The notes under the pieces are model-generated. The model was given only the letters and a program-made list of their open reading frames with translations, did no database searches and had not been told where the DNA came from. Positions 32,337 through 54,495 of a stretch of DNA of 64,000 bases are shown here, one piece after another; positions within the stretch are counted from its first letter, which is position 1; every line of letters starts with the position of its first letter. The position numbers and the translations under genes were made by a program. Source of the DNA: an uncultured Chloroflexia bacterium (GTDB taxonomy: Bacteria; Chloroflexota; Limnocylindria; Limnocylindrales; CSP1-4). The stretch covers positions 27,811 through 91,810 of the forward strand of contig CAVZTA010000013.1 of assembly GCA_963778025.1 (NCBI GenBank). Direction: 5' to 3'.

Positions 32337-32376
32337 TCGAGGCGACAGCCTCGGATCCCGCAGCGTGCCGGGCTGT

Positions 32377-32523
32377 ATGCAGATCCTGCATGTCGTGACC
32401 CTCGGGAGCACCTGACCCGCCGATCCGATGCACGCGCGGCATATCCCGGGCGAGGTCATGGACGAGGTGCATACCTCCGACGAGTTCGGGTGCCCCGCCG
32501 GTCACGACAGTCAGTTGCTGCAT
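32377..32523. repeat. Intergenic inverted repeat pair (REPIN-like)
   Basis: ATGCAG-N8-TGTCGTGACC (32377-32400) and its reverse complement at 32500-32523. Confidence 0.6.
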
Positions 32524-32609
32524 CCCGGACCGGGTCCAGCGGTCAAGCCACCCTGAGACGCCGCTGAAATCGGGCGCCACGGTCCGGTCCGTGTATCGTC
32601 GCCCCTGAG

Positions 32610-41548: not shown

Positions 41549-43192
41549 ATGCCCGACCGTCCGCGCTTCTACCTCACGACCGCCATCGCCTACGCCAACA
41601 ACGCGCCCGGCCTCCACACCGTCTACGAGGTCATCGGCGCGGATGCCATCGCGCGGTGGCATCGCATGAAGGGCGACGACACGCGGTTCCTCACCGGCAC
41701 CGACGAGCACTCGGTGAACATCGCGATGTCGGCCGAGGCGCAGGGCCGGACGCCGCGCGACTTCGTCGACGAGAAGGTCGAGCTGTTCCGGTCGGCCGAG
41801 GACGCGCTGCTCATCAGCCCCGATCGGTTCATCCGGACCACGGACCCCGATCACTACCGGGCGGCCCAGGAGGTCGTCCGGCGGGCGCACGCGAACGGCG
41901 ACATCTACCTCGGCACGTACGAGGGCTGGTACTGCCCGAACGAGGGCTTCAAGGCCCCCTCGGACCTGCTCGAGACGTCGAACGGCTGGCGCTGTCCCAA
42001 CCATCCCGACGTCCCCCTCCAGTGGCTGACCGAGCGCAACTGGTTCTTCCGCCTGTCGGCGTACCAGGAGCGGCTCGAGCGCTGGTTCGAGGAGCACCCC
42101 GACTTCGTGCGGCCCGAGTACCGCCGCAACGAGATGCTCGGCTTCATCCGCCAGGGGCTCGAGGACTTCTCGATCTCGCGCGCCGGCGCCGCGTGGGGCA
42201 TCCCGTTCCCGATCGGCGAGGATGGCCAGACCGCCCAGCGGGAGGATGGGTCGTGGGATCCCGAGGCCGGCACCATCTACGTCTGGTACGACGCGCTCAT
42301 CAACTACATCACCGGCGCGGGCTTCCCCGACGACCCGGACGCGTTCGCGAGGTGGTGGCCGGCCGATCTCCACGTCATCGGCAAGGACATCGCGCGGTTC
42401 CACACGATCTACTGGCCCGCGATGCTGTGGTCGGCCGGGCTCGAGGCGCCACGCCAGGTGTGGGTCCACGGGTTCATGACCGTCCAGGGCGAGAAGATGT
42501 CGAAGAGCCGCGGCAACTTCCTCGACCCCGCCGCGGTCGTCGACGCGTTCGGTGCCGACGGCGCGCGCTACGTGACGCTCCGCGAGATCCCGTTCGACCG
42601 CGATGCCGACGTCTCGTGGGACTCGTTCGTGCGGCGCTACAACGCCGATCTCGCGAACGACTTCGGCAACCTCGTGAACCGCACGGTCTCGATGGTCAAC
42701 CGCTACCTCGACGGGGAGCGGCCGGCCCCGCGGCCGGTCGGCGAGTCGCCGCTGGCCGAAGGCTGGGCGGCCACGCTGCGGACGGTCGAGGAGCGGCTCG
42801 ACGGCTGCCTGTTGCATGACGCGCTCGCGGAGCTCTGGGAGTTCGTGCGCGGCGCCAACAAGACGGTCGACGCCGAGCAGCCCTGGACGCTCGCCAAGGC
42901 GGCGAAGGCGGGTGACGAGGCGGCCGCCGCGCGCCTCCGTGCGGTGCTGGGCGACCTGGTGGAGGCGTGCCGGCTGGTCGGGCTCGCCGCCGCGCCGGTG
43001 ATGCCGGGCATCGCACCGCGCCTCCTGGCGCAGCTCGGGCACCGCTACGGCTACGACCCGACCGGCAACGGCGGGCCGCCGATCCATGCCGAGCTCCAGT
43101 GGGCCGCACATGCCGCCGACGCGGGCCGGGTCACGGCACCCGAGCCGCTCTTCCCGCGGCTCGATGTGGAGGTCGCGGAAACCACCGGTTGA
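41549..43192 (+). CDS. metG: Methionyl-tRNA synthetase (short form) with non-canonical HIGH motif
   Basis: FYLTTAIAY, TGTDEH, FIRTT, YVWYDALINY, GKDIARFH, KMSKS, YNADLANDFGNL. Confidence 0.96.
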   Translation: MPDRPRFYLTTAIAYANNAPGLHTVYEVIGADAIARWHRMKGDDTRFLTGTDEHSVNIAMSAEAQGRTPRDFVDEKVELFRSAEDALLISPDRFIRTTDPDHYRAAQEVVRRAHANGDIYLGTYEGWYCPNEGFKAPSDLLETSNGWRCPNHPDVPLQWLTERNWFFRLSAYQERLERWFEEHPDFVRPEYRRNEMLGFIRQGLEDFSISRAGAAWGIPFPIGEDGQTAQREDGSWDPEAGTIYVWYDALINYITGAGFPDDPDAFARWWPADLHVIGKDIARFHTIYWPAMLWSAGLEAPRQVWVHGFMTVQGEKMSKSRGNFLDPAAVVDAFGADGARYVTLREIPFDRDADVSWDSFVRRYNADLANDFGNLVNRTVSMVNRYLDGERPAPRPVGESPLAEGWAATLRTVEERLDGCLLHDALAELWEFVRGANKTVDAEQPWTLAKAAKAGDEAAAARLRAVLGDLVEACRLVGLAAAPVMPGIAPRLLAQLGHRYGYDPTGNGGPPIHAELQWAAHAADAGRVTAPEPLFPRLDVEVAETTG

Positions 43193-43246
43193 TCTCCCGG
43201 GCGTACGCTCGGCCGACGCACCGGGTCACCTCCAGGAGGACGCACC

Positions 43247-43606
43247 ATGGCCAAGGGCACCATCACGCATATCGAGTTCCCGGCCGATGACGTGGATCGG
43301 GCACGGGACTTCTACGCCGCCGTCGCCGGCTGGGAGCTCACTGAGATGGAGGGCTTCCCGGGCTACCTCGTGTTCCGCTCCGAGGAGGGCCACGGCGGCG
43401 GTCTCGGCAAGCGCGGCGAGTCGGTCGGCTCGGTCGTCCGCGTGTACATCACGGTCGACAAGCTCGAGGACGCCATCGCGACGGCCGAGCAGCACGGCGG
43501 GTCGGTGGTCACGCCGCCCAGCGAGATCCCGGGCATGGGTCGCTGGGCCGCGGTGACCGATTCGGAGGGCAACGAGATCGGCCTCTGGGAGAACATCCCG
43601 GGCTGA
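43247..43606 (+). CDS. VOC/glyoxalase-family protein
   Basis: THIEFPADD..RA..FY, YITVD, DSEGNEIGLWE; AGGAGG SD. Confidence 0.9.
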   Translation: MAKGTITHIEFPADDVDRARDFYAAVAGWELTEMEGFPGYLVFRSEEGHGGGLGKRGESVGSVVRVYITVDKLEDAIATAEQHGGSVVTPPSEIPGMGRWAAVTDSEGNEIGLWENIPG

Positions 43607-43617
43607 CGGGCGCGCAG

Positions 43618-43637
43618 CCCCCCGCGGCGGCGGGGGG
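43618..43637 (+). terminator. GC-rich hairpin after metG-VOC
   Basis: CCCCCCGC-GGCG-GCGGGGGG. Confidence 0.55.
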
Positions 43638-43645
43638 CCGCGTCG

Positions 43646-44718
43646 GTGTGCCGCGCCAGACACCATCCGACGAAGGAGTCCGTGCTCCGTCGCCGATCGG
43701 GTCCGGTGGGGGCTCGGACCGCTACCGAGCGCCCGGTCAAGCGCCGGTTGGTGCTGTGCCAGTACCGCCCGACCCCATCACAGGACGACGATGCCGTTGC
43801 GTTCGGGTGGCAGCCCTCGCGAGACCCGGGCCATCACCGCGCGCGTATCGAGCGGGAACGAGGCGCGCAGTGCCTCGCGGTGGAGGGCAAGGACGCGCCG
43901 GTTGTGATGCGTGTCGGCCACCAGCAGGATGAGGACCGGGAGCCCGGCGTCTCGCTGCTTCTGCAGCGCCCGGCGTTCGAGCGCCTGCAGGTCCGCCAGA
44001 TGCGTCTCGGCTTCGACACCGATGCGTCGTCGAGCCAGGATCGCCGTCCCATCGATCCCGCGCAGATCACCCGGGATCGCAAGGGGCGTCTCTCGTCGGA
44101 ACGGTGTCCCGGGCGGGAGCCGACCCTCGAACCGCGTCAGGAGTCGCGTCTGGCCAGCATCGCGGATCGGGTCGCCGTCGGGATACGCCTTGCCGCTCAG
44201 CCGCAGCCCGACGGCGGCACACGCCAGGGACACCTGCAGGACCGTCACATTTGCCAGTACGCCACGCTCGATCCGTCCCAGCACCGAGTAGCTCATCCCG
44301 ACGCTCGCGGCCGCGGCGCGAAGGCTCAGCCCCGCGCTGATCCGAGCGTTCCGGATCTCAGCGCCGAGCTTCCGACGGAGGTCGACCGCTGTGGCGCGGG
44401 CGCGATCGGATCGCCGTTGGGTGGTCGCCATCGGCGCACCGTCGCAGACGGCACGTAGCTGTGACTTAGCCGCCGGTCTCCGAAACCTGGGCCCGCCACC
44501 GCGGTGCTCGCTGCAGCGGTGCTGGTCAACCACGAGGACGTCCGGTTCTTGTCCGGGACGTTGAAGACCTCGCGAAGCGGGAGGGTGGCTCGTCCATGGT
44601 GCTGTCTCCGCACCATCCGACGAACCAAGGGCCTGTCCGTCGCGGTCCGTGTCGCTGGCAGCACCGATCGGCCGACCAGCGCCTCGAGGTTCGTCGGTTG
44701 GTGCCCCAGGCGGCACAC
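43646..44718. mobile_element. Candidate selfish cassette: HTH-nuclease gene bounded by four REP-like units
   Basis: Outer 29-nt inverted repeats 43646-43674 and 44690-44718 (23/29 identical); inner copies near 43743-43766 and 44598-44626. Confidence 0.5.
43778..44431 (-). CDS. XRE-type HTH fused to a PD-(D/E)xK-like nuclease-fold domain
   Basis: IRNARISAGLSLRAAAASVGMS....GRIERG HTH; RRE...GID...GVEAET acidic motif. Confidence 0.75.
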   Translation of the reverse strand: MATTQRRSDRARATAVDLRRKLGAEIRNARISAGLSLRAAAASVGMSYSVLGRIERGVLANVTVLQVSLACAAVGLRLSGKAYPDGDPIRDAGQTRLLTRFEGRLPPGTPFRRETPLAIPGDLRGIDGTAILARRRIGVEAETHLADLQALERRALQKQRDAGLPVLILLVADTHHNRRVLALHREALRASFPLDTRAVMARVSRGLPPERNGIVVL

Positions 44719-44926
44719 AGGCACATGAGGGGTCCCCGCCGCGCCCGTCGCTTCGGGGACTTGGGTCATCCGCGATCGTGGTCCGCCGCACGTGTGGGAG
44801 GCGTTGTCGAGTGGCGCGCGGACGGGGAGCGCCCGCGCCGCGTGCGGGAGTGCGGGGTCGATGCATCAGCCCGATCGATCGGCTCGGCTGTGGCAGGCGG
44901 ACGTCGCTGCGGCAGACTGCGCATCG

Positions 44927-45748
44927 ATGCGGCTCATCGACCCGCATGCGCACCTCAATGCCGACCGCTTCGCCCACGATGTCGAGCTCGTCGTGGGCGC
45001 GGCGAAGCTGGCCGGCATCGAGCGCATGCTCATCCCCGGCTGGAACGTGGCGAGCTCCGAGCGGGCGCTCGAGCTCGCCGAGCGCTGGCCGTGGCTCGAC
45101 GCGAGCGTCGGCATCCATCCGCATGACGCCGCGAAGGTCGATGACGCCGGGTGGGCACGGATCGAACGCTGGGCGGCCGACGAGCGCGTGAGCGCCATCG
45201 GCGAGACCGGGCTCGATTCGGACCGGCTGTTCTCGCCCTGGGACGCGCAGCTCGAGAACCTGCGCCGGAACCTCGCCCTCGCGTGCGCGACGGGGAAGCC
45301 GGCGATCCTCCACTGCCGCTCGAAGGACGGCCGCCGCGATGCCCAGGACGCGCTGGTCGAAGAGGTGGACCGGGCCGGGCTGGGCTCCGGAGCGGCGCCG
45401 TTCGGCGATCGCCCGGCGGCGGTGATCCACTCCTTCTCCGGGCCGGTCGACTACGCCCGAGCGATGCTCGACCGCGGGCTCGCGATCAGCTTCAGCGGTC
45501 TCGTGTTCCGGCGCGGTGAGGAGGCCTCGGGGCAGGTCGCGCCGCTCGTGCCGTCCGACCGACTCCTCGTGGAGACGGATTCGCCGTTCCTCACGCCACC
45601 CGGCGGTCCGAAGGGGCGCAACGAGCCGTCTGCCGTGGCGATCACCGCCAGCTGGCTCGCCGAGCGCCGCGGCGAGGCATCGGACGCGCTGGGCGCGCAC
45701 CTGGTCCAGGCCTACGACCGCACCTTCCCGAGGGAACGCCCACGATGA
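44927..45748 (+). CDS. tatD: TatD-family hydrolase/DNase
   Basis: IDPHAHL, GIHPH, AIGETGLD, ILHCR, VIHSFSG, VETDSPFL. Confidence 0.95.
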   Translation: MRLIDPHAHLNADRFAHDVELVVGAAKLAGIERMLIPGWNVASSERALELAERWPWLDASVGIHPHDAAKVDDAGWARIERWAADERVSAIGETGLDSDRLFSPWDAQLENLRRNLALACATGKPAILHCRSKDGRRDAQDALVEEVDRAGLGSGAAPFGDRPAAVIHSFSGPVDYARAMLDRGLAISFSGLVFRRGEEASGQVAPLVPSDRLLVETDSPFLTPPGGPKGRNEPSAVAITASWLAERRGEASDALGAHLVQAYDRTFPRERPR

Positions 45749-54374: not shown

Positions 54375-54495
54375 CGAAGGTCCTGGGACCTCGTGGACTG
54401 TGCGCACCGGGTTCGCCGGTCGGTCTCGGCGGGTGGAGTGAGGTGGCGGCCGGAGCGGGTCGAACGCGAGTACTCGACAGGTCCCAGGACCCTCG
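54375..54495. repeat. Inverted pair of short palindromes (REPIN-like)
   Basis: CGAAGGTCCTGGGACCT (54375-54391) vs AGGTCCCAGGACCCTCG (54479-54495), 16/17 complementary. Confidence 0.65.

Follow-up and report, generated by a model that had tools for sequence, protein, structure and literature searches.

Which kind of system is formed by a small gene that is bracketed on both sides by inverted pairs of short palindromic repeats, and that encodes a protein with no recognised transposase domain? This question is raised by a locus in the genome of an uncultured soil bacterium of the Chloroflexia (order Limnocylindrales, lineage CSP1-4; assembly GCA_963778025.1). The stretch of DNA analysed as a whole, here called the window, comprises 64,000 nt of contig CAVZTA010000013.1 (positions 27,811 to 91,810 of the forward strand), and coordinates are window positions unless a contig or locus is named. 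The gene (43778-44431, minus strand) encodes the 217-residue protein P0001, with a helix-turn-helix (HTH) domain of the XRE type at approximately residues 10-80 followed by a domain with a predicted PD-(D/E)xK nuclease fold at approximately residues 88-217. The arrangement recalls REPINs, i.e. doublets of repetitive extragenic palindromic (REP) sequences, and the REP-associated tyrosine transposases (RAYTs). Based on the sequence comparisons described here, we see an even chance that the locus is a member of a REPtron-like system, i.e. a gene together with its own cognate palindromes, in this case with an enzyme that is not related to the tyrosine transposases of the RAYT class.

Repeat units and encoded protein at the locus

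A previous reading of the locus from its letters alone, the sequence-only reading, had described four units, each a small hairpin followed by a tail, that bracket the gene as two inverted pairs. All four were recovered where it had placed them. Unit 1 (outer left, 43645-43674, plus strand) consists of the small palindrome GGTGT..ACACC followed by the tail ATCCGACGAA; unit 2 (inner left, 43742-43772, minus strand) is a degenerate copy, in which the core CGCCGGTTGGTGC (43742-43754), matching 44692-44704 at 92%, is followed by a weak hairpin; unit 3 (inner right, 44597-44626, plus strand) consists of the palindrome TGGTGC..GCACCA and the tail TCCGACGAACC; and unit 4 (outer right, 44688-44718, minus strand) reads GGTTCGTCGGTTGGTGCC..GGCACAC. 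The units therefore flank the gene at 43778-44431 in the order plus, minus, gene, plus, minus. The left module (43645-43772), which is located downstream of the gene, is an inverted unit pair with 81 nt from start to start and begins 6 nt past the stop codon of the gene. The right module (44597-44718) is located upstream of the gene, shares homology with the module at the same position in the orthologous loci L013, L015 and L017, and is separated from the start codon by a spacer of 165 nt (44432-44596, minus strand) that, judging by the layout of other loci, presumably holds the promoter and the 5' untranslated region.

The sequence CACCATCCGACGAA is present in exact form at 43661-43674 and 44611-44624 (plus strand), and its variant CACCAACCGACGAA at 44690-44703 (minus strand). 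In agreement with the pairing proposed earlier, the right unit pair is 94% complementary over 17 nt, with 61 nt separating the arms, and the outermost arms (43646-43674 and 44690-44718) are complementary at 23 of 29 positions (79%). Because three separate segments are repeated on the two sides of the gene at a spacing of exactly 950 nt, we conclude that an imperfect-palindrome module of approximately 120 nt lies in register on both sides. The right module is predicted to fold into a hairpin of approximately 130 nt (dG -72.7 kcal/mol, z = -4.25, plus strand), and the predicted fold of the left module is weak (z = -1.6). The motif was matched seven times in the window at up to two mismatches, compared with 1.24 matches expected, and none of 100 shuffles reached seven; in the whole assembly of the source genome (G000; 4.28 Mb in 19 contigs, 81% complete), it was matched six times at up to one mismatch, and the three exact matches are all at the locus. 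Since the exact copies are confined to the locus and BLAST of the locus modules against the assembly detected no other copy, the repeat is real and has no dispersed family in its own genome.

The left module is situated between convergent genes, and a contig from an RNA library covers 43649-43831, i.e. this module and the 3' end of the gene, with strand and ends not readable from the contig. No Rfam family reached the gathering score in the window, and in the interval 43000-45300 only a chance match to a miRNA was obtained (E 0.17). Likewise, a promoter and terminator scan of 43500-45000 returned nothing, including no sigma-70-like site.

In searches of P0001 against Pfam, HTH_3 and HTH_31 matched residues 22-69, each with 27.8 bits and above the gathering score (cut-offs 23 and 27, respectively), and no other family was detected. 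Residues 88-217 matched nothing in Pfam or NCBIfam; NCBIfam, PADLOC and PHROGs gave matches to the HTH domain only and no named family over the C-terminal domain, the PADLOC matches being weak (E 0.005-0.08; Control_protein E 0.0055). In the ESM Atlas, the C-terminal domain matched only unnamed Chloroflexota clusters.

An AlphaFold model of P0001 built with 44 homologues had a predicted local distance difference test (pLDDT) score of 91.3 and contains strands at residues 111-116, 125-132, 135-142 and 167-171. In structure comparisons, residues 10-80 matched XRE repressors, controller (C) proteins of restriction-modification systems and HipB (Z 9-10), with ClgR also among the nearest structures. 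Residues 88-217 matched the XisH-like protein 2okf (Z 9.3, root-mean-square deviation 2.7, 105 aligned residues), AF1548 (1y88; Z 9.2), the C-terminal domain of NucS (2vld; Z 8.5) and the nuclease domains of Card1 and Can2 (Z 8.3 and 7.8, respectively); the tool itself rates such Z values as middling, but the matches extend over the whole domain. Foldseek also lists Bax1, OkrAI, McrC and R2 endonuclease. In total, we conclude from the model that the C-terminal domain has a predicted PD-(D/E)xK fold with an alpha-beta-beta-beta-alpha-beta core.

Eight residues are invariant in the 44 sequences (E114, D122, D127, E140, E142, D147, Q149 and K158). In the predicted model, D127 and E140-x-E142 are located on strands 2 and 3, which is the place of the superfamily signature D...(D/E)xK; the third residue is E and not K, and the invariant K158 is on the next helix. 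We take this D..ExE triad to be BamHI-like. Modelled as a homodimer, P0001 scored 0.78, compared with 0.00 for the best of three controls, with contacts that agree by at least 84% between runs, a partner pLDDT of at least 83 and a predicted interface formed by residues 3-86, i.e. the HTH domain. Among proteins of known structure, 20 of 30 solved as pairs and one of 23 solved as single chains attained the mark used. Because XRE dimers are among the solved structures, the pass may reflect a resemblance to these dimers. Altogether, the models suggest that P0001 is probably a dimeric HTH protein with a conserved nuclease-fold domain.

No DDE, HUH, serine recombinase or tyrosine recombinase domain was detected in P0001 by Pfam, NCBIfam, Foldseek or structure comparison. 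Moreover, Y1_Tnp (PF01797) had no match in the 81%-complete source genome, while the control matched in 6 of 14 genomes. The earlier description of a 217-residue protein with an XRE-HTH and a restriction-fold domain and with no HUH motif therefore agrees with Pfam and the structure comparison.

Flanking and dispersed repeats in the protein family

A profile search identified 468 clusters at 50% identity (E <= 1e-30), and the named records among them are metagenome-assembled genomes of Chloroflexota, several labelled Limnocylindria or Limnocylindrales. Of the 81 genomes sampled from the taxonomic family to which the window belongs, 64 had at least one copy of the protein family (E <= 1e-20), with up to six copies each; none of 12 genomes of the sister family was matched by a single-protein query. 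The source genome encodes four further paralogues with 37-52% identity. Thus, an unnamed family of proteins of approximately 217 residues with an XRE-HTH and a PD-(D/E)xK-type fold is widespread in Limnocylindria-type Chloroflexota. Most of the database relatives are on very short contigs (approximately 0.9-2 kb), which would fit assembly breaks at flanking repeats, and some members look as if they were decaying, with in-frame stops, splits or truncations (G012:C12:45373-46023, G080:C1:1586727-1587371, G010:C6:123275-123712 and G011:C9:294428-295076).

To compare flanks across the family, 350 nt upstream were aligned to 350 nt downstream of the gene at each of 39 loci, and the threshold was set at a score of 39, the 99th percentile for 1482 mismatched pairs of upstream and downstream flanks. 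Eleven of the 39 loci exceeded this threshold, compared with 1.9% of 1500 random positions of the source genome examined with the same geometry, i.e. an enrichment of approximately 15-fold; among the positives, L006 and L043 are the same locus. At the convincing loci, the modules are 40-190 nt long, the downstream module starts 6-50 nt past the stop codon and the upstream module stops 60-140 nt short of the start codon. Units of 25-30 nt make up each module, either as a pair or as an array. In a 12-mer scan, the order plus, minus, gene, plus, minus, at approximately -260, -150, +30 and +150, was found in L001, L003, L045, L034 and L049; L013 has four units in a different order, L016, L004 and L027 have three units, and L024, L018, C6a and L002 have direct arrays, which in L024 comprise three upstream and five downstream units with a 61-nt period. 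In L003 and L034, the modules form terminal inverted repeats of 170-190 nt at 85-90%. We conclude that a cassette with flanking repeats (module, spacer of 60-140 nt, gene, module) holds for a sizeable minority of the copies. The sequence-only reading had asked beforehand whether paralogues have flanking repeat families of their own, and for this minority they do.

Locus pairs with less than 60% amino acid identity had flank scores at background (median 26, n=101), and all four pairs with at least 82% identity share modules; the units are paralogue-specific. K-mer enrichment across the flanks of the loci detected no common motif, and the idea of a universal CGACGAA/CGTC family tag was discarded because the tail CGACGAA is not enriched near the genes.

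In the source genome, the paralogue on contig C1 (C1:79392-79955) is intact, retains the conserved residues and is followed by two tandem 160-nt palindromes from +35. This palindromic repeat is dispersed, with 14 copies at 11 loci, each detected on both strands by nhmmer, and three of these loci are tandem doublets; one copy is in the window at 32369-32532 (C13:60179-60342). Invariant blocks, ATGCAG-N-CTGCAT and GTGACC/GGTCAC, surround a variable centre. Among 272 short-repeat families identified by self-BLAST of the genome, this family is the only one with both-strand matches, and the chance of finding it within 500 nt of a paralogue is approximately 0.01 by a post hoc estimate (11 loci x 5 genes x 1 kb / 4.28 Mb). 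Similarly, the unit of paralogue C6b had 13 matches at up to five mismatches, compared with none for a reversed control. Whole modules are tandemly duplicated just after two paralogues, at C6:227080-227485 (235-nt period, 92-93%) and C1:79014-79357 (180-nt period, 89%), and local duplication of a module is also found in L013 (53 nt).

The sequence-only reading had supposed that the element at 43645-44718 might also explain orphan inverted pairs elsewhere in the window. This was not borne out: the palindrome at 32369-32532 belongs to the family found beside another paralogue, and the sequence at 54375-54495, a 17-nt inverted pair (54375-54391 and 54479-54495) that is 94% complementary with an 87-nt spacer (ACGAAGGTCCTGGGACCT...), has no second copy in the genome. 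Two further inverted pairs, 58279/58403 and 27948/28047, were rejected as they look like coding DNA.

The proximity of palindromes and genes could be incidental, with generic REP-like or terminator palindromes, spread by another agent or by local duplication, gathering in permissive intergenic DNA near accessory genes. The 28 of 39 loci without flank-to-flank similarity fit this idea, as do the location of the left module between convergent genes, where terminators are expected, and the frequency of local tandem module duplication (235 nt in C6b, 180 nt in C1, 53 nt in L013). By contrast, it does not account for a flank similarity approximately 15-fold above that of random positions, for the recurrence of layout and distances, for the joint change of gene and units at one locus (see below) or for the observation that the sole both-strand repeat family in the genome adjoins one of five paralogues, with the low post hoc chance given above. 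We consider an incidental association highly improbable.

Matching of dispersed repeats to gene alleles covered five genomes. The L034 module is present at approximately 24 other loci in G060, with matches of 100 nt or more at approximately 11 of these and on both strands at many. In G054, units of L024 are present at approximately six other loci; in G005, there are one more full copy of the L003 module and several single units; and in G087 (L049), the unit is present at just one other locus. The dispersed copies are mostly 70-90% identical, and whole modules of 140-190 nt, spacers included, recur at 70-88%. Most dispersed copies are between convergent or tandem genes, as judged by a crude strand call from the GC content of third codon positions (GC3). 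The sequence-only reading had proposed an analogous REP-associated system built on a restriction-fold nuclease; this stood in so far as modules of other family members are dispersed in a REPIN-like manner, and it did not hold for the locus itself, whose unit has no other copy in the assembly.

The same observations bear on the idea that P0001 is an autoregulated XRE-type repressor. The units would then be duplex operators on both sides of the gene, an arrangement like that of lambda OL/OR around cI, the dimer would loop the DNA and insulate or repress neighbouring transcription, the dispersed units would be a regulon, and the C-terminal domain would serve as an effector or oligomerisation domain. 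Consistent with a repressor, the HTH domain is of the XRE class with C-proteins, HipB and ClgR as nearest structures, the predicted dimer forms via this domain, and each unit has a 15-20-bp palindrome of the type bound by HTH dimers (TGGTGC-N7-GCACCA at the locus; ATGCAG-N3-5-CTGCAT in the C1-type repeat). Moreover, the unit cores are kept in orthologous loci while the centre of the module drifts, and the sites of the locus copy are only around its own gene. However, the recurrence of whole modules with their spacers is like DNA copying and not like operator gain; dispersed copies are mostly not upstream of genes according to the crude GC3 call; the downstream module begins 6-50 nt past the stop codon in many loci; the acidic triad of the nuclease fold is invariant; and the genes next to the locus, VOC and tatD, include no methylase or toxin partner. 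A repressor is, in our estimation, unlikely, while deserving serious consideration.

Cassette variation at one locus and history of the insertion site

The sample includes three genomes of genus g6 (G005, G061 and G089). The cassettes of G005 and G061 are orthologous (91% amino acid identity) and share their units. At the corresponding locus of G089, the surrounding DNA matches that of G005 at 84-87% identity, but the gene reaches just 67%, and a different unit, GGCCGTTATRGGCAC, flanks it in the same layout. The core AAAGGTTGCTAA is present 10 times in G005, six times in G061 and not in G089, and a reversed control was not matched in any of the three genomes; outside its own cassette, the unit of G089 has a single near-match in that genome and a single one in G061, and G005 lacks any. 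These comparisons indicate that the gene, its flanking units and the dispersed units vary together within the three genomes of this genus. A pair of genes for a Phd/YefM-like antitoxin and a PIN (VapC-like) toxin (L090:773-1445; G005:C9 ~562070-562745) is missing in G061 and adjoins a solo module in G005.

In the window, the gene order is metG, VOC, the element in antisense orientation, and tatD. The sequence-only reading, which had placed the element antisense between metG and tatD, was correct about order and strand and had overlooked the 119-residue glyoxalase/VOC gene (43247-43606) between metG and the element; tatD starts at 44927. Directly after the VOC stop codon and outside the units of the element, a GC-rich hairpin (43613-43642, plus strand; 13-nt arms that are 92% complementary, 4-nt loop) is probably the VOC terminator. 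The cassette contains no methylase, toxin or immunity partner gene, and neither the neighbouring genes nor PHROGs pointed to a prophage context at the locus.

In metagenome contigs, orthologues with 82-83% (L013, L015 and L017) and 58% (L014) amino acid identity occupy the same site between the end of VOC and the start of tatD. Among the 82% orthologues, the upstream modules can be aligned with one another, with both units conserved and the centre less so. By contrast, none of 28 relatives of other genera has the gene at the metG-tatD site, and metG is within 180 nt of tatD in 22 of these, i.e. the empty sites in relatives that had been anticipated from the sequence were found; in G007, the order is metG-VOC-tatD with an 11-nt gap. 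Unrelated inserts between metG and tatD include an open reading frame resembling LLM-type luciferase-like oxidoreductases (G003, L070:2358-3653) and a Gly/Ser-rich secreted-looking protein (G017, L064:2393-3808). The metG-tatD junction looks like a recurrent insertion point.

Four Logan metagenome runs of low depth provided further contigs, none of which spans the locus, and the uncovered bins 44453-44887 are uninformative. A segment of 1276 nt (43622-44897) is missing from one contig, which has 26 other letters instead, and the lineage-specific insertion in the VOC-tatD gap extends at most over this segment. In this contig of run X2 (134 nt, depth 2.4, side 30), position 43621 is followed by the 26 letters and then by 44898, and a contig of run X1 also leaves the window sequence at 44898. 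These contigs hint weakly at an unoccupied VOC-tatD site in a near relative. Two other joints, 42834>45062 and 42928>45270, lead from the interior of metG to the interior of tatD with short sides and were taken as other organisms or chance.

In total, the comparisons indicate that the element is an old insertion, made once in an ancestor of this genus-level lineage at the VOC-tatD gap and inherited vertically since then. The sequence-only reading had counted stable vertical inheritance at this locus as an argument against a selfish element. Such inheritance was indeed seen, with orthologues down to 58% identity, and is not decisive: RAYTs are described as vertically inherited in the RAYT literature, and vertical inheritance is therefore not by itself evidence against a REP-like system.

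The differing cassettes in g6 and the variable metG-tatD junction raise the possibility of a rapidly exchanged cassette of the defence or addiction type, i.e. a sequence-specific nuclease with a fused controller HTH, for which the palindromes would be recombination or insulation sites used for swapping and not mobile repeats. This explanation would accommodate the presence, between conserved flanks at one locus, of different gene-plus-unit cassettes in sister species, the several diverged copies per genome, next to which fragments and copies interrupted by stop codons are found, the different inserts at the metG-tatD junction by lineage, and the Phd/VapC pair beside the solo module in G005. 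Nevertheless, matches in PADLOC were weak and limited to the HTH domain (E values as given above), those in PHROGs were likewise confined to this domain, the cassette has no methylase or immunity partner, and the genome-wide dispersal of modules would be left unexplained. We regard a defence-type cassette as improbable.

A REPtron-like reading and its relation to known systems

Under the preferred reading of a REPtron-like system, the protein would dimerise via its HTH domain, and the dimer would bind the 15-20-bp palindrome within each unit. The BamHI-like D..ExE nuclease domains would cut at or near the units, and cutting together with host repair or replication would copy modules to new sites or would exchange or excise the cassette. 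The copy at the locus has kept its four units since its entry into the VOC-tatD gap and has no dispersed population in the assembly. Both the mobility and the cleavage are inferred. A wider proposal, which we offer tentatively and think less than probable on the sequence comparisons, is that the XRE-HTH/PD-(D/E)xK family is a dedicated mobiliser of REPIN-like repeats in Chloroflexota, i.e. a second, independently evolved replicator of the REPIN-RAYT type that would act by site- or structure-specific cutting and host repair and whose cassettes would be replaceable at a site.

Several observations weigh against a REPtron-like system. At the locus itself, BLAST detected no second copy of the modules in the assembly; the contig with the putative empty site has 26 unrelated letters and no clean junction; and no target-site duplication was identified, though no formal search was made. 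Across the family, 28 of the 39 loci lack flank-to-flank similarity, two of the 11 positives (L009 and L044) look like GC-rich simple repeats, and the positives are not all independent, as L001 and L013 are orthologues. Moreover, across the family the tail CGACGAA is about as frequent near the genes (0.28/kb) as farther away (0.26/kb), paralogues within the source genome are at most 52% identical with no near-identical gene copies, and the repeat populations are small and old, with nothing that points to recent bursts. A solo module in G005 (C9:562867-563007) was considered as a case of recent movement and rejected, since it is at the same site in G061 and the difference between the two genomes is the inserted Phd/VapC pair. 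Finally, a PD-(D/E)xK nuclease is able to cut DNA but is not known to carry out strand transfer alone, and the copying step is therefore without a known mechanism.

The system resembles the REPIN-RAYT systems of Proteobacteria, as portrayed in published descriptions, in that short palindromic units with unpaired tails stand in inverted orientation on both sides of a single gene, in that the units pair into larger hairpin-forming doublets, in that each paralogue has its own repeat family, in that a fixed locus is passed on vertically, and in that doublet populations are dispersed in some genomes. It differs in the enzyme, which combines an XRE-HTH with a PD-(D/E)xK fold and is not an HUH/Y1 transposase; in the lack of a GTAG tag; in its populations of 0 to approximately 25 diverged loci, compared with the hundreds of near-identical REPINs of those descriptions; and in having several paralogues per genome and a host in the Chloroflexota. 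Units dispersed at extragenic sites are lacking for the locus copy and present for other family members. We conclude that the system works like a REPtron but is not one, because the defining HUH enzyme was not found and the locus copy is without a dispersed population.

According to Di Nocera et al. 2013 (PMC3733652), CGTC REPs have a terminal CGTC, a stem of 8-9 bp whose first pairs are AT, a loop of 4-5 nt and a tail of CCA, and have no dedicated transposase. The locus units likewise carry CGTC next to the palindrome (TTCGTCGG...), but have GC-rich stems of 5-6 bp and loops of 4-10 nt, and their CGACGAA tail is not family-wide. Measured against that description, the locus units are not CGTC-tagged REPs.

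The element shares with insertion sequences and miniature inverted-repeat transposable elements the terminal inverted repeats (29 nt with 23/29 matches at the locus and the long repeats of L003 and L034), the form of a discrete cassette (approximately 1.07 kb between the outermost units, inside the 1276-nt segment that one metagenome contig lacks) and, in the genomes of some members, gene-less copies of the ends elsewhere. In contrast to these elements, it has no recognised DDE, HUH, serine or tyrosine chemistry, its gene copies within the genome have diverged to the extent given above, and the target-site duplication typical of them was not seen, with the limit on that search stated above. 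The C-terminal fold is shared with NucS/EndoMS, XisH-like proteins and AF1548, and P0001 is, like NucS, a two-domain protein of approximately 220 residues; there is no sequence-level relation to these proteins in Pfam or NCBIfam, and P0001 differs by its N-terminal XRE HTH and its D..ExE motif. C-proteins of restriction-modification systems differ in their context, as the locus has no adjacent restriction or methylase genes and is next to glyoxalase/VOC and TatD. The gene for the XRE-class repressor cI of phage lambda has its own palindromic site arrays, OL and OR, on both sides. Thus, the lambda immunity region is similar in that an XRE-class gene is flanked on both sides by palindromic arrays, and different in that, in the family described here, whole modules are copied elsewhere, the nuclease fold is conserved and a prophage context is lacking.

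In the open-access literature searched, we found no description of an HTH/PD-(D/E)xK gene tied to palindromic repeats. Essentially only one enzyme class, the RAYTs, is known to serve REP or REPIN repeats as a dedicated single-copy enzyme. Other palindromic repeat families, among them the CGTC REPs, are without a known mobiliser (PMC3733652). If the REPtron-like reading is true, the arrangement of a gene with its cognate palindromes would have evolved more than once, and the family would provide a testable candidate enzyme for palindromic repeats outside the RAYT class. The comparisons also provide a first functional lead for an unnamed protein family that is common in an abundant uncultured soil lineage.

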